Of a DNA stretch of 16,552 nt, positions 1-16,552 are shown in pieces. The position numbers and the translations under genes are program-made. The notes beneath the pieces were generated by a model. The model was not told where the DNA came from. It saw only the letters and a program-made list of their open reading frames with translations, and made no database searches. Source of the DNA: a virus (lineage: Duplodnaviria; Heunggongvirae; Uroviricota; Caudoviricetes); the IMG/VR virus record IMGVR_UViG_2585427768_000007, one strand, 5' to 3'. How positions within the stretch are numbered: the stretch's first letter is position 1; every line of letters starts with the position of its first letter.

Positions 1-1020
1 CTACTTACTGACCACAAGCGGCAAATCCAGTGTTGGTGTGATTTTGGTTTTACGATCGTAAATCAACACCTGATTTTCTGTTTTGTGTCCACTGAAAATT
101 TGTTTGTCGCGACTGCTGCCTTCGTAATCTGAAATCCCTTTGGCTTTTATGTCATGAAAATTACATCCGAACGGAACGCCTGCTTTTTGCTCGGCTGCGC
201 GTTTAGCCTGATTCCACCAGTTGTTCAGCGTTTTAGCGATGACTTTCCCGCCTTTGGTTGTGCTGATCACATACTCGCATGTGCCGGAAGATACATTTCG
301 GGCTAACTGGATCGCCGTACGTAATCGCGGAGACCATTCCTTGATTTGTTTGGTGCCTGTTTTGTTTTGCTCAATGTAGATCCCTTTATCCATAATATCC
401 TGCCATTTCAGCTCGAGAACATCACCGAGCCTTGCCGCACAAAGATAGGAAATCTCCATTGCAATGCGTAACTGTGGAATTGCTTCCGCGTATATCGCCG
501 CATACTGTTCATCGGTTATGTAAACAGTGCGGGCTTTAAGCGTGAATTTTCTGACGCCTTTGCATGGATTATTTTTCACATACCCACGCTCATATCCCCA
601 TCCGTATACGCGACTCAGGCTTGCCAGCTCATGGTTTGCCTGGGTCTTGCTCTCAAGTCCCCGCTTATCCATGAAAATTCTTACTTGCTCAATTTTTACA
701 TTATCAGCAAGCACTTTACCGAATACCGCCAGCAACGCCCTCTGATGTTGTCGATAATCTTTTTGGGTTCGGGGTGCCAGTTCTGTAAATGCAGGGGAGT
801 CCATAAACATGTGCCATAATTTAGCGACGGTCATTATGTTGTGGAGTTTTGCTTTTTCCAGTTCATAATTTTGCCAGACTTTAGCTACGCTGGTTTCCCG
901 TACTCTTCCGAGCCCTATAGTTCTTGTGCTTCCTTCGGGTTTCCACACGTAACTGTAACCATTCGATCTAACACGCGGTGGTAGTGCATTATCTTTTTTG
1001 TTTTTTCTTGGTCTTCCCAT
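1..1020 (-). CDS. int: Phage tyrosine integrase (lambda Int-like site-specific recombinase)
   Basis: 339-aa ORF with tyrosine-recombinase C-terminal signatures (AARLGDV arginine region, HDIKAKG region, LIYDRK tyrosine region). Stop codon at 1-3, so the att site lies outside the window. Start overlaps the upstream xis ORF by 32 nt, as in lambda. Confidence 0.9.
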   Translation of the reverse strand: MGRPRKNKKDNALPPRVRSNGYSYVWKPEGSTRTIGLGRVRETSVAKVWQNYELEKAKLHNIMTVAKLWHMFMDSPAFTELAPRTQKDYRQHQRALLAVFGKVLADNVKIEQVRIFMDKRGLESKTQANHELASLSRVYGWGYERGYVKNNPCKGVRKFTLKARTVYITDEQYAAIYAEAIPQLRIAMEISYLCAARLGDVLELKWQDIMDKGIYIEQNKTGTKQIKEWSPRLRTAIQLARNVSSGTCEYVISTTKGGKVIAKTLNNWWNQAKRAAEQKAGVPFGCNFHDIKAKGISDYEGSSRDKQIFSGHKTENQVLIYDRKTKITPTLDLPLVVSK

Positions 1021-1240
1021 TGTTCAGCGCCTCAAAATCGGGTTCAGCGGAAACCAGCTCAGCTGCTTTTGGCATCGTTGTCAGTCCGTGTGGAATATCC
1101 CTGCGAAGAACTATTGGTTCGTTTTTAGGACCGATTACAAATGGGATGCCGTGCAGCCTTAACTGGTGTTGCTGTTTTGTGTATCGCTCGTATTTCGTGA
1201 TCTCTTGAATCTCTGCTGGCGATAGAGTTAATTCGTACAT
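989..1240 (-). CDS. xis: Excisionase-like small DNA-binding protein
   Basis: 83-aa basic ORF immediately upstream of int and overlapping its start; lysine-rich C-terminus. Assigned by position and size, not by a recognised motif. Confidence 0.6.
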   Translation of the reverse strand: MYELTLSPAEIQEITKYERYTKQQHQLRLHGIPFVIGPKNEPIVLRRDIPHGLTTMPKAAELVSAEPDFEALNNGKTKKKQKR

Positions 1241-1306
1241 GTGGTCACGTGCCTTACAGCATGACCGCCGCCAATATAATTCAGAGACGGCGATCAGGGT
1301 TGAACA

Positions 1307-1849
1307 TTAAAAATCAACCGGATTCGGGATCAGTTTTTGCCAGATTGCTGAAACGTATTTTGCCTGGTGACGGGCGTCATCCAGTGCATTGTGGCGAACG
1401 CCTTCGAATGGAATAACGGTTCTAGCATCAAAGTCGATTGTTTTTCCCAGCTCAACGATTGTGCGTACATCGCGATCGTTGTGGTAGCGCCACGGGCAGG
1501 GGATTCCCTGTCGTTCGTATGAACGGCGTAAAATTACGTTGTCGAAACTGGTTCCGTTGCCCCAGACCTGAACAAAAAACTCACCAGAGTTTTCGTCGAT
1601 AAATTCCCGTAATTGTAACAGTGCATCATCTAACGGGATTTCATCAGCCAGAATGGCAGACTGCGCTTCGCGCGATTGCTTAAGCCACCACTTAACGGTG
1701 TCCCGATCAATGACACCGCCAGCAGTATCCAGATCGATAGTCTTACTAAATTCCGGTCCCATATCTCCGGTTTGCGGATCGAAAAATATTGCACCTATTG
1801 AGATGATCGGGGCATCAGGATTTTTTCCCATGGTTTCAAGGTCGATCAT
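1307..1849 (-). CDS. DEDDh-type 3'-5' exonuclease (DnaQ/RNase T-like), phage early protein
   Basis: 180-aa ORF with Exo I motif MIDLETMG (D and E), Exo II region VWGNGTSFD and Exo III motif HNALDDARH. Confidence 0.75.
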   Translation of the reverse strand: MIDLETMGKNPDAPIISIGAIFFDPQTGDMGPEFSKTIDLDTAGGVIDRDTVKWWLKQSREAQSAILADEIPLDDALLQLREFIDENSGEFFVQVWGNGTSFDNVILRRSYERQGIPCPWRYHNDRDVRTIVELGKTIDFDARTVIPFEGVRHNALDDARHQAKYVSAIWQKLIPNPVDF

Positions 1850-1856
1850 CAGATGG

Positions 1857-2063
1857 TCACACGTCCTGCTGGTGGATATGATTATGATGACTGTTCACCG
1901 CAATTAAGGGATTTGCCATCTCGCCAGTTTCATCACCGCTATCGCCATGCTGAGCGCCACCAGCGCTCTCCTTACGAGAATGCGCAGCGCCTTCCATTTC
2001 CTCCGAATCTTTTTCAACCAGATACTCTTCATCGAATGTTTCCTGATATGTTGCGTCACCCAT
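1857..2063 (-). CDS. Small acidic hypothetical protein
   Basis: ATG at 2063 overlaps the TGA stop (2056-2058) of the upstream segment (ATGGGTGA), suggesting translational coupling. The longer 72-aa form starting at 2075 is possible. No recognised domain. Confidence 0.4.
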
Positions 2064-2334
2064 AACAGCCCACAATCAGGACAATTGCCGCCGCCAGCCC
2101 GACCGCAAGCAGTGCAGCTTTTTCCACTTCCTGTTGCGCCACTGGCTCTGACTGTTGCACTTCTGGCCCGTTTTGTAACGCATCCGGGCTGTTTTGTTCC
2201 GCTTTCTGGTAGTTCCGTTCCAATTCATGCTGATTCTGGTACACAGAATCGCGAGTCTGGATCCCCTCAACCCACTTCGGATCATTCGGGTCGCTAATTC
2301 CTTCAACAAATTCACCACGTGAGACAGCAAGCAC
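2056..2334 (-). CDS. C-terminal segment of phage early protein, with a hydrophobic helix ([17 protein letters not shown])
   Basis: Typical codon usage only in this frame. It opens at a GTG directly after an in-frame TAA with no Shine-Dalgarno, so it is more likely the tail of the upstream frameshifted gene than an independent gene. Confidence 0.4.
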
Positions 2335-2401
2335 TTATCGGCGTCAGGCTGGCTGATATTGGCTGCCTGCATAATTTTGTTTACTTCGTCAGCGGTAACT
2401 T

Positions 2402-3193
2402 TTACCGGCCCTGGTTGTGCGATCGTGTCAGATGCACCAGTATTTTGTTGTGAACCTGAGTACGTACCGTTTTTACGGGCGAAATATTCCTCTTTCGTGA
2501 TTTCAGTAGCCCCAGCGCCAGTGCCTTATCCAGACCAGAAAGTTTGTTTGCGCGACCGTATTTTTCGCCGTCCTTATCGGTGAAAAGGAAGTAGAACGGT
2601 CCCTCACGCTCTACAGATGGTTCGTCTTCCACTTCGCATTCGGTTTTTTCGTTGTCCGGCATTGCCGTTTCCACTGCATCAGTTTCTGGTACTGGTGACG
2701 GGAGAGTACCAGCTGTGCCCTGATTTGTTCCTTCGTCATCTTCAAACACGCCCTTGGTAGTCAGGTATTCAGTGATGTATTTGTTCAGTGCTACGGGATC
2801 TTTGTGAATGTCGATCGGACGCTCACGGACAAGGCCAAAAATAGTCTGACGGTCGTAGCGAACGGCATCAGGCTGTTTGCGCATTGATGCCGAAATACGC
2901 TTCCAGTCTTCGCGATCGTTGTCGATAACTTCATTTTTTGCCCAGCGATGGATGCTGCCGTCAATGTTTCCGGTATCAATATCGCCAGGCCAGAGAGCGT
3001 AGGCCAGTTCTTCATCCAGCGTTTTCCATGTCTGCTTGTATTCGCGACAAATGGCGGCAGTGACTGGGTTGATTTTTCCTGCTGAGTTTTCAGTGTTCTG
3101 TTGATTGACTCTGGCGCTGGCGAGATCAACAACAGACGTGTATTTTCCAGTCTCCTTGCGCTCACCGTCCCGACGTTTTTTCCAGATACGCAT
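2402..3193 (-). CDS. Middle segment of phage early protein (acidic), in -1 frame relative to the 3765 start
   Basis: 263-aa ORF. Protein-like composition and common codons from 3193 to about 2510; the last ~35 codons use rare codons (cta, cga, agg, ata, cgg) and look like out-of-frame read-through. ATG at 3193 is preceded directly by TGA. Confidence 0.45.
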   Translation of the reverse strand: MRIWKKRRDGERKETGKYTSVVDLASARVNQQNTENSAGKINPVTAAICREYKQTWKTLDEELAYALWPGDIDTGNIDGSIHRWAKNEVIDNDREDWKRISASMRKQPDAVRYDRQTIFGLVRERPIDIHKDPVALNKYITEYLTTKGVFEDDEGTNQGTAGTLPSPVPETDAVETAMPDNEKTECEVEDEPSVEREGPFYFLFTDKDGEKYGRANKLSGLDKALALGLLKSRKRNISPVKTVRTQVHNKILVHLTRSHNQGR

Positions 3194-3765
3194 TCAGCCT
3201 GAATTTCGGGCCATTTGGCACCAGGATTACATTTATGCTTAACCCACCCGATAGCAAACAGCTTAAGCTCCGGATACATAGCGTTAACATCAGGCATTTT
3301 CATCAACGCTTCAACGATATGCCCGTCAAAGGTAGCAACGTCTTCCTGCAACAATTCCTGCGCGCCAATAACCATATCAACGGTGATGTTTTCACATGTA
3401 CCGAACTTAACCAGGACAGCGTTCTGTACTTCAAGGGACAGCTTGTCAAAATTGACGTTCATCGGATCGGATTCAGTCTCAACCGGGACAAAGGAAGCAG
3501 ACTCCTCATCCCAGCGGTTTTCCTGCATATATTCAGCATCCCAGGAATCGAGGGCAGGGCGGGGTATACCGGGTTTATCCTCGCAGACAAGAAATTTATA
3601 AGCGCAGTCCTGAGCAGCCGGATAATGTTCCAGGAATTGCCAGTGAAATTTTGCGCGGGCGCGACGTTCATCACCGGCTTCAATGGCAGTGGCTACAGCG
3701 ACGGCACCTTCTTCCTTTATTGCCTGTTCGTCCGGAATAGCGGCGCAAATAAAGACTTTACTCAT
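2791..3765 (-). CDS. N-terminal segment of phage early protein (first ~197 codons genuine, remainder out of frame)
   Basis: Shine-Dalgarno GAGGT upstream of ATG 3765. Composition is protein-like up to the A6 run at 3176-3181; after that the frame yields S/T/L/R-rich low-quality sequence while the -1 frame becomes protein-like. Confidence 0.5.
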   Translation of the reverse strand: MSKVFICAAIPDEQAIKEEGAVAVATAIEAGDERRARAKFHWQFLEHYPAAQDCAYKFLVCEDKPGIPRPALDSWDAEYMQENRWDEESASFVPVETESDPMNVNFDKLSLEVQNAVLVKFGTCENITVDMVIGAQELLQEDVATFDGHIVEALMKMPDVNAMYPELKLFAIGWVKHKCNPGAKWPEIQAECVSGKNVGTVSARRLENTRLLLISPAPESINRTLKTQQEKSTQSLPPFVANTSRHGKRWMKNWPTLSGLAILIPETLTAASIAGQKMKLSTTIAKTGSVFRHQCANSLMPFATTVRLFLALSVSVRSTFTKIP

Positions 3766-4032
3766 TTTGTTTTACCTCATTACAGATTTAAGGGTGAACA
3801 AATCCCTGCCATTGCTGGCATATAAGAATGAAACCGGATAATATGACGGACGGGTTAGCCAGCCGGGATTTCGTTATTAGCCTCGCGATACTTTATCGAA
3901 CGGGAAACAGTCACCGGGAATTTTCTGTTCGTCCCTACAGAACACACGATGACTTACTGTCAAAAATGACGGCAATAACAACTGGCTCACCCGAAACAAG
4001 AAAAACGGTCAGAACAAGTGCAAATGCTGAAG

Positions 4033-4392: not shown

Positions 4393-4448
4393 AAAGGGCG
4401 GCAGAGCAGTCACGGAGTAAAACTGATACCGCCAAACGTCACCAGAAA
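4393..4448 (-). ncRNA. dicF: DicF small regulatory RNA (ftsZ-targeting sRNA)
   Basis: Minus strand reads TTTCTGGTGACGTTTGGCGGTATCAGTTTTACTCCGTGACTGCTCTGCCGCCCTTTTT, which matches the E. coli DicF sequence as I remember it, including the terminal GC stem and U-tract. Confidence 0.8.
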
Positions 4449-4753: not shown

Positions 4754-5128
4754 TTAATGATTAATCGATATTTTGTTGTTTGATTCAACTTTCCCATCGG
4801 ATGTGTGATGCTTTAAATCACAGGAATTAATACTGCTTGCTGTAAAATGATTTTCAAGGGGAGCTATTCGAATCCCTTTCTTTTTCATTAACAAGCCAAA
4901 TCCTTTATTAATGATGTCCATTAATTCCAGAAAGTATTTTTCATGTAAATCCTGGTTATCAGAGAGCTGCTTCTCTTCGTACAGCCCGATAAAGGCTCGG
5001 CGTACGTTACCGGATATATTGTCGATGGTTTCTTTTTCTACGGTACTCAGGTCAAGAGTCGCCAGTTGGGAACGAACTATATTCGCTGCCATTTCCTGGA
5101 ATTGCATTGGTAAATCTTTAAATTCCAT
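4754..5128 (-). CDS. Hypothetical protein (AT-rich insert between the ydfC-like gene and dicF)
   Basis: 124-aa ORF with GAGG 8 nt upstream of the ATG. Visibly more AT-rich than flanking phage genes. No recognised motif. Confidence 0.55.
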   Translation of the reverse strand: MEFKDLPMQFQEMAANIVRSQLATLDLSTVEKETIDNISGNVRRAFIGLYEEKQLSDNQDLHEKYFLELMDIINKGFGLLMKKKGIRIAPLENHFTASSINSCDLKHHTSDGKVESNNKISINH

Positions 5129-5150
5129 TATTAGCCTCGTTGGTTAGCTA

Positions 5151-5369
5151 TTAACGCGGGTATGTAATCATTCTGGCAATGCTTAATGCCGCTGCTTTTT
5201 CCAGATTAGTGATATCCTGCTCCAGAGCGGACAGATTTTCAGCCTGCTTAGCCCTGGCTTCATTGGCCCATTTCAGATCCTGCGCTGCATTAATTTTCTG
5301 GTGCATCCACTCATAAAGTTCATCATCGGTATAGTCTGGCGCGATGATGACGGGTTCTCGTTTCTGCAT
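5151..5369 (-). CDS. ydfC: YdfC-like small prophage protein
   Basis: 72-aa ORF with GAGGA Shine-Dalgarno. Same size and position as ydfC in the Qin ydfA-ydfB-ydfC-dicF-dicB operon. Confidence 0.6.
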   Translation of the reverse strand: MQKREPVIIAPDYTDDELYEWMHQKINAAQDLKWANEARAKQAENLSALEQDITNLEKAAALSIARMITYPR

Positions 5370-5398
5370 ACTGATTCCTCGCGGTGCTGTTTCGCTTA

Positions 5399-5527
5399 TC
5401 AGCCGTTAGATTTTGCCGAGCTGGAAAGCGCCTGTTTAAACTCACTGAAGCTGAGAGCTTCTTCGCCTTCGGCAAGGCCTTCGAAGTATTCTTCGTAAGC
5501 CTTTTCCATGATTGTGTCGAAATCCAT
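5399..5527 (-). CDS. ydfB: YdfB-like small acidic protein (42 aa)
   Basis: Not in the supplied ORF track (below its size cut-off). Hand translation gives MDFDTIMEKAYEEYFEGLAEGEEALSFSEFKQALSSSAKSNG. AGGTGA Shine-Dalgarno upstream; packed between the ydfA-like and ydfC-like genes. Confidence 0.5.
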   Translation of the reverse strand: MDFDTIMEKAYEEYFEGLAEGEEALSFSEFKQALSSSAKSNG

Positions 5528-10502: not shown

Positions 10503-11696
<1,194 letters not shown>

Positions 11697-11853: not shown

Positions 11854-12540
11854 ATGACCCCAATAAAAATATTTATGACTATTGCTGATTTCAAACGGCC
11901 TAAATTGGAACTCCCAAACGGGGCAAACAAACTACTACTGCACTCTTGCTGTGCTCCATGTTCCGGTGAAGTGATGGAGGCGCTTCAGGCCTCGGGAATC
12001 GACTACACCATCTTTTTCTACAACCCGAACATTCATCCTCAGAAAGAGTATTTAATTCGTAAGGATGAAAATATTCGCTTTGCTGAACAACACGGCGTGC
12101 CGTTTATCGATGCTGATTACGACACCGACAACTGGTTTGAACGTGCCAAAGGAATGGAATGGGAGCCTGAGAGGGGGATCCGTTGTACCATGTGTTTTGA
12201 CATGCGTTTTGAGCGGACAGCGTTGTACGCTGCTGAAAATGGTTTCAGTGTGATCAGCAGTTCACTGGGCATTTCACGCTGGAAAAATATGCAGCAGGTT
12301 AACGAGTGTGGGCGGCGAGCTGTTGCGCATTATCCGGGTATGGTGTACTGGGATTATAACTGGCGCAAGCAGGGCGGCTCGTCCCGTATGATTGAAATCA
12401 GCAAGCGCGAAAAATTCTATCAGCAGGAATATTGTGGCTGTGTGTATTCTCTGCGCGATACCAATCTACACCGCAAATCTCAGGGACGCCCTCTTATCAA
12501 AATTGGCCAACTCCACTACGGAAAAGAAGAGAAGGAGTGA
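11854..12540 (+). CDS. QueH-like protein (DUF208; epoxyqueuosine-reductase family), putative
   Basis: 228-aa ORF with [11 protein letters not shown] near the N-terminus, NPNIHP, RC..CF, and C-terminal [10 protein letters not shown], matching DUF208/QueH cysteine motifs as I recall them. Family assignment is from memory. Confidence 0.55.
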
Positions 12541-12610
12541 TTTTATGGATCACCTTTCTGATTGATTTCATATTGGCGAGGTGACGTGAGTTAAGTAGAA
12601 TTGCTGCGGG

Positions 12611-12635
12611 TGCCTGAGGCTGTCTGCCTCAGGCA
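12611..12635. promoter_or_regulatory. Perfect 10-bp inverted repeat (TGCCTGAGGC-TGTCT-GCCTCAGGCA) between the queH-like and methyltransferase genes
   Basis: GC-rich hairpin with no U-tract; each arm contains a CCTNAGG heptamer. Candidate attenuator, operator or RNA-stability element. Confidence 0.4.
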
Positions 12636-12718
12636 TGAACACCAAAAGGCAGATAGAGAAAGCCCCAGTTAACATTACGCGTCCTGTAAGACGCTCAACA
12701 TTAATCTGAGGCATATGG

Positions 12719-13843
12719 ATGCGGATGAAAGAATTAAATAAATTCAGAGTGATAGACCTCTTTTGTGGGGCAGGTGGATTATCTTATGGTTTTCTTCATG
12801 GAGAGATGTCTGACTACTTTGAAAGTATCCTTGCTATTGATAATAATGCTGCAGCTATAAATACCTACAATGCCAATTTTGGTTTGCATGGAGTTCAGGC
12901 AAATATTGAGGAGTGGGCATCCAGCAATACTGTTCCTGAGGCTGATGTGGTCATAGGTGGCCCCCCGTGTCAGGGATTCAGTTTATTAAATAAGAATCGT
13001 TATGGTGATCACCGAAGAGCATTGTGGGAGCCTTATATGGATGTCATTGAGCGTTCAAGGGCTTGTATGTTCGTCATGGAAAATGTCCCCGGATTGCTGA
13101 TAAGCGATGAGTTTGCGGACATTACGTTTAGAGCGAAATCCATGGGCTTTATTCTGCTTAATCCAATGGTGTTGAATACTGCTGACTATGGAGTACCTCA
13201 GACAAGAAAACGAACGATAGCAATCGGTATCAAACGAGAACTCTTCGATGTGCATAGTATTCCGGCGTTCCCGCCAGCACCAACGCATCGTTCCCCTGAT
13301 AAGGATGTCGCTTTGCCTGAATGGGTCTGTACGCGTGATGCAATTGGTGACTTACCTGCTCCTGTTGGAACTGATATTCGTAATGAACTTCCTCCGCTGA
13401 ACTTACATTTTGGGCGTAATCCCACACCTGTTTCTCTGGAGCGATATAAAGCGGTTCCACCAGGAGGTAACCGTTTCGATTTACAGAAAAAAAGACCTGA
13501 TATAACCCCGGCGTGCTGGCTAAAAAAGAAATCTGGAGGGACCGATTTGTTTGGACGTCTGTGGTGGGACAGACCTTCAGTAACGATTCGTACTGAGTTT
13601 TTCAAACCGGAGAAAGGGCGATATTTACATCCGGAAGAGGATCGGCCAATAACTCATCGTGAGGCAGCGAGATTAATGTCTTTTCCTGATAATTTCATTT
13701 TTACCGGTTCAAAAACTGAGATTGCAAAGCAGATCGGGAATGCTGTTCCACCGCTATTTGCGGCAAAAATCGCACAATATGTGTATGGAGTTTTGCAGGG
13801 ACGGTATAAGAATAACATCAGTAAGAATAGTCAAGCAGCCTGA
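12719..13843 (+). CDS. DNA (cytosine-5)-methyltransferase, Type II R-M modification subunit
   Basis: 374-aa ORF with canonical m5C motifs in order: I DLFCGAGG, IV GGPPCQGFS, VI ENV, VIII QTRKR, IX REAARLMSFPD, X GNAVPP. GAGG 8 nt upstream of the ATG. Confidence 0.9.
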   Translation: MRMKELNKFRVIDLFCGAGGLSYGFLHGEMSDYFESILAIDNNAAAINTYNANFGLHGVQANIEEWASSNTVPEADVVIGGPPCQGFSLLNKNRYGDHRRALWEPYMDVIERSRACMFVMENVPGLLISDEFADITFRAKSMGFILLNPMVLNTADYGVPQTRKRTIAIGIKRELFDVHSIPAFPPAPTHRSPDKDVALPEWVCTRDAIGDLPAPVGTDIRNELPPLNLHFGRNPTPVSLERYKAVPPGGNRFDLQKKRPDITPACWLKKKSGGTDLFGRLWWDRPSVTIRTEFFKPEKGRYLHPEEDRPITHREAARLMSFPDNFIFTGSKTEIAKQIGNAVPPLFAAKIAQYVYGVLQGRYKNNISKNSQAA

Positions 13844-13856
13844 AGGAAATCCAGAA

Positions 13857-14735
13857 ATGAATGGAGATTTGGTTGACAGCATAGTTGGTTTTGCTGAAGC
13901 CAGAAAGGAGTTTCATGCCCAATTGTTACTGAATACGCTCACAATTAATACTGCCGGAGTTGTTAGTAACGCAGATAGCAGTAACAAAAACAGTAAAGCT
14001 ATAGCAAGAGAAATTGCTCGCTTCTTGCAGGCTGAAACGATTGGTGAACGTGTTGCAGGGCAAACATCTGGTAATCAGTTTGAGAGTATCTGCGCAGAGT
14101 TTATAGAAAAAACCTTTTTTAAACTCAGCCACTTACGCCCTGGAAAATGGAATGTACATCAGGTTTCTGGTAGAAACAGATTAGAGATAGCTAAATATGA
14201 ACAATATGCCCATCTTATAGCATTGGATAGTGCTGCAAAAAGTAATCCTCAGCTAGCTGCTGCACTGGGGAGTGATTATACGATTTCACCAGATATTATT
14301 GTTGAAAGAGAACCTGAATGTGATCAAGTTATCAACAGTCCTGAATTACTGGTGGATGATTCTGTTACCCGCATGTCAGCTCTCAGGAGTTCGAATGGTG
14401 GGAAACCAATATTACACGCAAGTATTTCCTGCAAATGGACAATAAGAAGCGACCGGGCCCAGAATGCTCGTTCTGAGGCATTAAATCTTATTCGCAACCG
14501 TAAGGGAAATCTCCCTCATGTAATGGTTGTTACTGCTGAGCCTACTCCAAGTCGTCTGGCGTCTATTGCTCTTGGTACTGGTGATATAGATTGCGTGTAT
14601 CATTTTGCGCTTTATGAACTTATATCAGCAGTTGAAATACTGGGGCTCAGCGATGCAGCTGACATGCTTTCCGTGATGGTTAATGGTAAAAGATTAAAGG
14701 ATATTTCTGATCTTCCCTTGGATCTTGCAGTCTGA
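13857..14735 (+). CDS. Type II restriction endonuclease, putative (NgoMIV/Cfr10I-like PD...SxK...E arrangement)
   Basis: 292 aa from ATG 13857, 14 nt after the methyltransferase stop (the track ORF starting at 13722 overlaps the methyltransferase). P145-D146, S191-x-K193, E207: the D-to-K spacing of 47 and K-to-E spacing of 14 equal those I recall for NgoMIV (D140, K187, E201). Confidence 0.6.
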   Translation: MNGDLVDSIVGFAEARKEFHAQLLLNTLTINTAGVVSNADSSNKNSKAIAREIARFLQAETIGERVAGQTSGNQFESICAEFIEKTFFKLSHLRPGKWNVHQVSGRNRLEIAKYEQYAHLIALDSAAKSNPQLAAALGSDYTISPDIIVEREPECDQVINSPELLVDDSVTRMSALRSSNGGKPILHASISCKWTIRSDRAQNARSEALNLIRNRKGNLPHVMVVTAEPTPSRLASIALGTGDIDCVYHFALYELISAVEILGLSDAADMLSVMVNGKRLKDISDLPLDLAV

Positions 14736-14807
14736 CATCTCTACGTAAATAGAGTCTGTCATATTTTAACTGTGATGGCACGTCATTGACTTCAGTACAT
14801 TTTTACT

Positions 14808-14833
14808 AACCCGCTTCGCGGGTTTTGTTTTTT
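14808..14833 (+). terminator. Rho-independent terminator downstream of the restriction gene
   Basis: AACCCGC-TTC-GCGGGTT followed by TTGTTTTTT. Confidence 0.65.
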
Positions 14834-14905
14834 CCTGGCATTCTGGTTTACAATCCACACGCCAGCCTGAACAACTGGCACCTGCTGCGCCAGCAGAGAA
14901 AACAG

Positions 14906-15214: not shown

Positions 15215-15682
15215 AAAGGCGCTGCTGATAAGCTCCAGTTGCTCTGACACATCACATCCCAGAGAACTGAGTTCACCACCACAGGCAGGACAGCATTCCT
15301 CTTCCGGCCGGATAACCCGGGTTTCACGGGGAAGTGAGGCCGGTAACGGTTTACGGGCTGAAGACTGGCGCAGGGCGGATGGCAGTACCGGGTCATATTG
15401 CTCACCCAGCGTTTCCGCCATTTCTTCCTGAAGTGCGCTGATTCGCTCCTGTGCTTCCTGTATCTGCCGTTCGGTTTTTGCACGAAGTTTTTCTGAGCTT
15501 TTACCGAACTGCATACGTTGCAGTTTCGCAACCAGCGCCTTCAGCCGGTTGATTTCGGAAGCATAAGCCGCCACCCGCTGTGAGAGCAGGCGGTTGTATT
15601 CAGCCATCTGGCGGATGGTGTCCTGTTGCGTCTGCAACAGTGCCCGCAGGCGGGCGTTCTCATGAGCAAGTGAGGTGTCCAT
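15215..15682 (-). pseudogene. IS66 transposase TnpC, N-terminal fragment only
   Basis: Starts MDTSLAHENARLRALLQTQQDTIRQMAEYNRLL, with leucine zipper and CxxC zinc finger (CCPACGG) as in ISEc8-like TnpC. Catalytic region absent; the track ORF continues to 14942 as out-of-frame read-through. Confidence 0.8.
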
Positions 15683-15701
15683 ATCCTCACTTTACAACGG
15701 G

Positions 15702-16049
15702 TTATATGCGGATTCCAGCGCGTTCCGTTCGTTTCGGGTGCTTCCAGTTGATACCTTCAAGAAGCATGGATAACTGAGCCGGAGTAAGGTGCACCTTGCC
15801 GTCACGGGTGACTGGCCAGACGAAGCGGCCCCGCTCCAGGCGTTTGGTGAAGAGGCACAGTCCGTCACTGTCAGCCCACAACACTTTTATCTGGTCACCC
15901 CGGCGTCCGCGGAAGATGAACAGGTGTCCGGAGAACGGGTCATCCTTCAGGACGTTCTGAACTTTTGATGCCAGGCCGTTAAAGCCATTTCGCATATCGG
16001 TGATACCTGCAACCAGCCAGATACGCGAACCTGCAGGGAGAGATATCAT
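15702..16049 (-). CDS. IS66 accessory protein TnpB (Orf2)
   Basis: 115-aa ORF MISLPAGSRIWLVAGITDMRNGFNGL..., typical IS66 Orf2. Start overlaps the tnpA stop (ATGA). Confidence 0.9.
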   Translation of the reverse strand: MISLPAGSRIWLVAGITDMRNGFNGLASKVQNVLKDDPFSGHLFIFRGRRGDQIKVLWADSDGLCLFTKRLERGRFVWPVTRDGKVHLTPAQLSMLLEGINWKHPKRTERAGIRI

Positions 16050-16552
16050 CAGTGGCTGCTCCCTTTTATTTCGCGGATAAGTGTCTGTAATAACGCCGGC
16101 GTCAGTTTACCTTTAAGCCTGAGAGTTCCGGCCGGCAGAACCAGCTCACAACACAGACTGTCGGACGGTGTATTTATCTGCTCTGGTTCCTGTGCGGGGG
16201 CCGGGATTTTATTATCCGGCTCCGGCGTTAACGTCACGGGAAGCAGTGCCGGCATATTTTTTCCGGAAGGCAGCAGGCCACCTTTCCGGTATTGATGGCG
16301 CCAGTTGAAGAGCAGGTTATCGTTGATTCCGTTTTCCCGGGCGATCTGCGCCACACAGGCTCCGGGCTGCAGTGACTGCTCCACTAAGGCGATTTTAAAC
16401 TCATAAGGGAAGTTGGGCCGCCGGGGACGTTTTTTTACCACGGGGGCTTCGGATATAACGGTGCTTTCAGGACGTACGACTGGTACCGTGGAAAATTGTC
16501 CGTAAAGGCAGGCATCAAGTTCCTGCTCCGACATGCCTGCGGGCAAGGCCAC
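16049..16552 (-). CDS. IS66 accessory protein TnpA (Orf1), N-terminus at or beyond window edge
   Basis: HTH-containing IS66 Orf1-like sequence (...ACVAQIARENGINDNLLFNWRHQYRKG...). The likely ATG at 16534 (MSEQELD...) is inside the window, but the ORF is open to the window edge. Confidence 0.8.
   Translation of the reverse strand: MALPAGMSEQELDACLYGQFSTVPVVRPESTVISEAPVVKKRPRRPNFPYEFKIALVEQSLQPGACVAQIARENGINDNLLFNWRHQYRKGGLLPSGKNMPALLPVTLTPEPDNKIPAPAQEPEQINTPSDSLCCELVLPAGTLRLKGKLTPALLQTLIREIKGSSH

Follow-up and report, generated by a model that had tools for sequence, protein, structure and literature searches.

The window, by which we mean the whole stretch of 16,552 nucleotides analysed here (IMG/VR virus record IMGVR_UViG_2585427768_000007), belongs to a lambdoid E. 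coli prophage. Its upstream genes are those for an exonuclease, dicB, the DicF RNA, cI/cro-like proteins, ydaT, replication functions, DUF1627 and DUF977 proteins and queH, and in intact relatives the downstream genes are DUF968, rusA and Q. Downstream of queH lie two genes in the same orientation, a methyltransferase gene (M) and an endonuclease gene (R), preceded by a hok leader and followed by a terminator-like hairpin (Table 1). The queH gene stands immediately upstream of this hok/R-M slot and occupies the same position in more than 900 E. coli genomes. DicF adjoins dicB, as annotated in identical prophages, and is an ordinary component of Qin/Rac-type lambdoid prophages. In addition, the window carries two insertion elements. 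The IS5-family element is located between the DUF977 gene and queH, has an apparent 4-bp target duplication, and is absent from the corresponding prophage of E. coli JE86-ST05 (L218). The ISCro1-like element abuts a small ORF downstream of the R-M genes and replaces DNA that continues into DUF968 in intact relatives; this junction was found in no complete E. coli genome of the collection.

Table 1. Features of the window, with positions counted from its first nucleotide
Feature	Position	Strand	Remarks
DicF antisense RNA	4396-4447	-	Rfam RF00039, 76.7 bits
IS5-family element	10503-11696		338-aa DDE transposase at 10535..11551
queH, epoxyqueuosine reductase QueH	11854-12540	+	Pfam E = 1e-65
Sigma-70-like promoter match	12573..12601	+	TTGGCG-17-TAGAAT; consensus match just upstream of the hok leader
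Retained hok/sok 5' leader	12608..12712	+	Well-aligned first part of the Rfam sok match 12608..12788 (61 bits; gathering score 59)
M-R cassette, insertion/replacement unit	12713..14806	+	2094 bp; blastn breakpoints against L218
M gene, C5-cytosine DNA methyltransferase	12725..13843	+	372 aa (RefSeq start); identical to WP_001427299.1
R gene, NgoMIV-family type II restriction endonuclease	13857..14735	+	292 aa; identical to WP_001012717.1
Intrinsic-terminator-like hairpin and T run	14808..14834	+	Common to hokD-bearing relatives
IS66-family element, ISCro1-like	~15216-16552	-	tnpA, tnpB and the N-terminal part of the transposase

The limits of the M-R cassette are defined by comparison with the L218 prophage, which has no R-M genes. 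Homology to L218 extends to window position 12712 and is found again from 14807 (blastn), and in place of the cassette L218 holds 287 bp (3515-3801) that contain hokD by annotation. On these breakpoints, the cassette is assigned as a precise replacement of the hokD coding region of the lambdoid prophage. The hokD ORF has been lost along with the presumed sok region, and the hok leader, a segment present in several thousand E. coli genomes, is kept together with the terminator-like hairpin, which begins 73 bp past the R stop codon. One addiction module has been swapped for another at the hokD slot. The sigma-70-like match could be the promoter of the M-R operon, and we treat it as a candidate, given that promoter-like matches in this region are no more numerous than in shuffled sequence.

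The R reading frame runs from an ATG to a TGA (14733-14735), with an AAGGA Shine-Dalgarno-like sequence ~10 nt 5' of the ATG, and its coordinates are those of the RefSeq CDS in identical E. coli DNA (L001, 15258..16136). The R protein matches the Pfam profile PF09015 (NgoMIV_restric) over positions 1-275 of 275 with E = 6e-127 and 423 bits, against a curated cut-off of 23.2 bits, and the PADLOC REase_II model PDLC03527 over its full length (E = 8e-126); no nuclease-specific model was found in NCBIfam. A phmmer search of the PDB returned NgoMIV (1FIU/4ABT; E = 9.6e-119), to which R is 65.6% identical over 282 aa with one 1-residue gap, and NgoMIV itself is the only solved relative of the R protein. 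R is assigned from these matches as a full-length member of the NgoMIV family. Compared with R.NgoMIV of Neisseria gonorrhoeae, a type IIF enzyme cutting G^CCGGC, R is collinear throughout (292 aa against 286 aa), and in both cases an m5C methyltransferase gene immediately precedes that of the nuclease. However, NgoMIV is encoded on the Neisseria chromosome next to purK, whereas R is carried by an E. coli lambdoid prophage, and the tetramerisation-loop region of R has diverged from that of R.NgoMIV.

The R protein contains Pro145, Asp146, Ser191, Cys192, Lys193 and Glu207, with spacings of 47 residues between Asp146 and Lys193 and of 14 residues between Lys193 and Glu207, exactly the residues and intervals that a first-pass annotation of this DNA had read from the ORF. 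The same annotation had named Asp140, Lys187 and Glu201 as the catalytic positions of NgoMIV, in agreement with the literature (PMC2532715), and the R residues align onto them: Asp146, Ser191, Lys193, Glu207 and Glu76 of R correspond to Asp140, Ser185, Lys187, Glu201 and Glu70 of NgoMIV. In NgoMIV, Asp140, Lys187 and Glu70 superpose on the active site of SgrAI, Glu201 is the conserved distal glutamate, and Ser185 stands in place of a missing acidic residue (PMC2532715). The motif shared by CCGG-family enzymes, PD-X46-53-K-X13-E, is accompanied by an RxDR stretch, R-S-D-R in NgoMIV, that reads the CCGG core (PMC3413111; PMC2532715). In R, Pro145-Asp146 is followed by 46 residues, Lys193, 13 residues and Glu207, and the RxDR recognition element is present as Arg197-Ser198-Asp199-Arg200, identical to Arg191-Ser-Asp-Arg194 of NgoMIV.

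The outer base pair is read in different ways by the enzymes of the CCGG family (PMC3413111). In NgoMIV, Gln63 provides a minor-groove contact to the outer cytosine (PMC3413111), and Arg227 together with Asp34 specifies the outer G:C pair (PMC6326814). The readers of the outer pair are identical in R, where Asp40, Gln69 and Arg233 correspond to Asp34, Gln63 and Arg227 of NgoMIV, and all of the catalytic and recognition residues listed here are invariant in an 18-member family alignment that reaches down to 48% identity. Cfr10I, Bse634I and SgrAI (R^CCGGY and CR^CCGGYG) have the catalytic motif and the RxDR stretch in common with R; unlike R, which has such residues, they are without outer-pair contacts of the Arg227/Asp34 type. 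Because the equivalents of Arg227, Asp34 and Gln63 are conserved along with the CCGG-reading motif, it is a well-supported prediction that R cuts GCCGGC, rather than the looser RCCGGY or just some CCGG site. The least conserved segment of R, residues ~151-182, corresponds to the tetramer-interface loop of NgoMIV, and type IIF behaviour of R is for this reason not assured.

The first-pass annotation had predicted a GCCGGC/CCGG-type site for the nuclease from the catalytic spacing and had placed R in a Cfr10I/Bse634I/NgoMIV family. The alignment to NgoMIV that it proposed as a check is far beyond chance (E = 1e-118), and the GCCGGC assignment gains support from the identity to NgoMIV and from the conservation of every base-reading residue. 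The family assignment stands by sequence for NgoMIV. For Cfr10I and Bse634I it does not, since neither showed sequence similarity to R in the PDB (phmmer at E <= 0.01, family profile at E <= 10), and the link to these two enzymes runs through published structures and motifs. A literature search found neither a cleavage or methylation experiment on this M-R protein pair nor any publication dealing with Eco56I or with the two E. coli enzymes.

The M protein matches Pfam PF00145 (E = 4e-54) as well as TIGR00675, and an alternative in-frame ATG at 12719 would extend it to 374 aa. Its stop codon is separated from the R start by 13 bp. As a stand-in for M.NgoMIV we used the methyltransferase of a syntenic Neisseria brasiliensis locus, where the nuclease shares 82% identity with NgoMIV and purK comes next, the same arrangement as in N. 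gonorrhoeae. This 312-aa partner shares 68% identity with its ~318-aa counterpart from a Neisseriales NgoMIV-homologue locus (L036), but only 25% with M, with no alignable recognition domain. M was on these grounds ruled out as an orthologue of M.NgoMIV, that is, as a member of the 312-318-aa lineage. Among the best 80 NgoMIV-homologue loci, the upstream methyltransferases, where they match M at all, are 25-35% identical to it.

By its homologues, M is placed in a distinct m5C lineage, whose usual partner is an HNH nuclease. In most loci of M homologues at 47-77% identity, the next gene encodes an HNH nuclease of ~311-330 aa, and where neighbouring genes are listed (L086 and L087) the context of the HNH-paired loci is a P2-like prophage. 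An NgoMIV-type partner, 80-85% identical to R, occurs in one group of M homologues only. This group comprises E. coli and Klebsiella loci (L083-85 and L114), four metagenomic viral contigs (L115-117 and L152), and Salmonella, the last judged from protein-cluster names; of these, the E. coli and Klebsiella loci were seen to lie in a lambdoid context. A neighbour-joining tree, computed without bootstrap, nests the NgoMIV-linked methyltransferases inside the HNH-linked ones. The target-recognition region of M (residues 186-310) is the best-conserved part of the protein across the lineage, in both partner groups, with identities of 66-85% except for a fused copy in L148 (59%). Because this region is the best-conserved part in both groups, the comparison argues for one shared specificity of NgoMIV-linked and HNH-linked methyltransferases.

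This specificity can be connected to published work on PhiO23A, a P2-like prophage of Aeromonas sp. O23A that encodes a 360-aa methyltransferase (ORF49) followed by a 311-aa HNH nuclease (ORF48) (PMC5446998). Plasmid DNA carrying the cloned PhiO23A methyltransferase was resistant to PdiI (GCCGGC) and showed no protection against BsuRI, Bsh1236I and Hin6I, and PhiO23A phage and host DNA were likewise PdiI-resistant (PMC5446998). ORF49 is stated to be similar to the REBASE entries M.Eco4255I and M.Eco3763II of STEC, for which the GCCGGC motif was obtained via SMRT sequencing (PMC5446998). The digest panel consisted of these four enzymes only (PMC5446998), and GCCGGC methylation is not separable in it from broader CCGG or RCCGGY methylation. 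The connection to M is made through viral contig L133, in which the methyltransferase (1..1083) is followed after a 26-nt gap by the HNH gene (1110..2045) and a minus-strand ORF (2232..2660). This layout matches exactly that of PhiO23A, with chromosome coordinates 806944..808026, 808053..808988 and 809175..809603 (PMC5446998), and the next gene of L133 has its best matches in the Aeromonas phages A051, P05B and phiO18P. From the identical gene coordinates and the Aeromonas-phage neighbours we infer that L133 is PhiO23A-like. The L133 methyltransferase is 66% identical to M, and the two share long identical stretches throughout their recognition regions.

The prediction that M is GCCGGC-specific therefore holds on evidence independent of M.NgoMIV, because M is linked to the nuclease and because a homologue, reached via L133, gave the published protection (PMC5446998). 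The first-pass annotation had extended the predicted site of the nuclease to the methyltransferase; the site itself agrees with these two lines of evidence, whereas homology to M.NgoMIV, at 25% identity, does not provide it. PhiO23A ORF49 and M belong to the same methyltransferase lineage and are both prophage-borne. However, the PhiO23A-type systems combine it with an HNH nuclease of ~311-330 aa on a P2-like prophage, whereas the partner here is a PD-(D/E)XK nuclease of NgoMIV type on a lambdoid prophage.

The HNH partner genes were located in L086 (5100-6092), L087 (4654-5640), L133 and ~30 more loci among L118-L154, and the N-terminal part of the encoded proteins contains two similar segments, EYARRIRELR…GW and EWARRTRELH…GW. 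The search for a characterised relative of the HNH partner returned only a weak HNH-motif match to McrA (6GHC, E = 3e-6) and generic HNH/REase models. We consider the ~311-330-aa HNH partner a candidate for a GCCGGC-specific enzyme of a different fold.

Among 5426 complete E. coli genomes, the M-R cassette DNA was found in 60, with >=99% identity in 59 cases and always on the chromosome; many O157:H7, O111 and O103 strains carry it. The two products are named "DNA cytosine methyltransferase" and "NgoMIV family type II restriction endonuclease" in RefSeq. Among cultured phages (INPHARED) neither the cassette DNA nor a close homologue of the methyltransferase was found, and among plasmids the cassette was not found, the only match being a hok-leader fragment. 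In a one-genome-per-species scan, 512 NgoMIV-family loci were confirmed, with identities of 59-78% in very different phyla. On the IMG/VR contigs L110, L111, L195 and L196, some E. coli copies of R that are 99-100% identical in other respects align only from residue 84, or in two frames with a 1-nt length difference, which suggests frameshifted, inactivated R next to an intact methyltransferase.

Taken together, the window very probably carries a complete type II M-R cassette on an E. coli lambdoid prophage, composed of a GCCGGC m5C methyltransferase and an NgoMIV-family PD-(D/E)XK endonuclease. The reading frames are intact, and family membership, conservation of the functional residues, gene order and context can be read directly from the DNA and its relatives. 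From these observations we infer the cleavage site, oligomeric state, expression and biological role as follows. Transcription of M and R would probably start from the retained hok promoter. M would methylate cytosine at C5 and protect the GCCGGC sites of host and prophage. R would bind GCCGGC, using the R-S-D-R stretch for the CCGG core and Asp40, Gln69 and Arg233 for the outer G:C pair, and would cleave by means of Asp146, Lys193, Glu207 and Glu76, presumably at G^CCGGC; like NgoMIV, it would presumably act as a type IIF tetramer. Likely roles of the system are defence of the lysogen against other phages and post-segregational stabilisation of the prophage, the latter taking the place of the hokD addiction module.

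Other readings of the locus differ from this one in the sites assigned to the two enzymes. R may be NgoMIV-like in fold and chemistry and have drifted to another CCGG-containing site, either RCCGGY, as for Cfr10I and Bse634I, or a longer one, which its identity to NgoMIV of only 65.6% and the different reading of the outer base pair by related CCGG-family enzymes (PMC3413111) would allow; however, with the equivalents of Arg227, Asp34 and Gln63 identical in R and invariant across the family sample, and with the partner methyltransferase lineage tied to GCCGGC (PMC5446998), we regard such a drift as extremely improbable. For M, a broader specificity (CCGG or RCCGGY) would merely include GCCGGC, and the nuclease would then not be an exact predictor of the methylation motif. 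The recognition domain of M is unrelated to that of M.NgoMIV, one methyltransferase lineage serves two unrelated nucleases, and HpaII, MspI and Cfr10I were missing from the published protection test (PMC5446998), all of which would fit a broader site, whereas the SMRT-derived REBASE motif of the similar M.Eco4255I and M.Eco3763II is GCCGGC (PMC5446998); we judge the broader specificity unlikely.

The cassette could, alternatively, be decaying or silent, with R unexpressed or inactive and M acting as a solitary enzyme. The prophage of the window is damaged by IS5 and ISCro1, R genes are disrupted on some related contigs, and the M-R promoter assignment is a consensus match only. Against this, both frames are intact and identical to those of dozens of genomes, all catalytic residues of R are present, and the order of M then R, 13 bp apart, is normal for an operon, which makes decay or silence very unlikely in our estimate.

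Concerning the origin of the pair, we give about even chances to a natural nuclease swap, in which a GCCGGC-methyltransferase lineage, paired with an HNH nuclease in most (P2-like) prophages, would have acquired an NgoMIV-type nuclease from a different R-M lineage in one nested clade, that of lambdoid prophages in E. coli, Salmonella and Klebsiella. If such a swap took place, the HNH partner would itself be a restriction enzyme with GCCGGC specificity and an unrelated fold, and the swap together with the precise hokD replacement behind a kept hok leader would be an example of how one prophage slot can trade addiction modules for defence modules. The R gene itself is already known, being annotated in RefSeq, and its family is among the best-studied restriction enzymes. 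What is new is mild, namely the hybrid pair of an NgoMIV-type nuclease and an otherwise HNH-linked methyltransferase in the hokD slot, and its evolutionary interest lies in the assembly of R-M systems. In practical terms, the ~1% of complete E. coli genomes that carry the cassette, many of them O157:H7, O111 and O103 STEC, should methylate and restrict GCCGGC, with expected effects on transformation, on susceptibility to phages and on how 5mC data are interpreted.

We note several further observations on the sites and on the relatives of the two genes. GCCGGC does not occur in that part of the window, ~14 kb, which is prophage DNA (~3 expected), and two of the five GCCGGC sites of the window are held by the IS5 element. 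Two carrier strains have 3 and 1 sites in their 30-kb prophage regions, against 8-10 expected. Avoidance of GCCGGC as a sign of the enzyme was rejected, as GGCGCC, GCGCGC and CGGCCG show a comparable depletion. In the viral contigs L147 (54-2192) and L148 (3986-6124), one ORF of 712 aa covers both the methyltransferase and the HNH nuclease, apparently an M-HNH fusion. In L141, a distant variant of the methyltransferase is separated from a shorter HNH protein (209 aa) by a vsr-like gene for very-short-patch repair (5098-5523, 141 aa); vsr is absent from the E. coli M-R cassette. The 90%-identity protein cluster of the methyltransferase (P0001) also lists 292-aa nucleases of the NgoMIV family, whose presence there is probably a clustering artefact of a fused or mis-called ORF.
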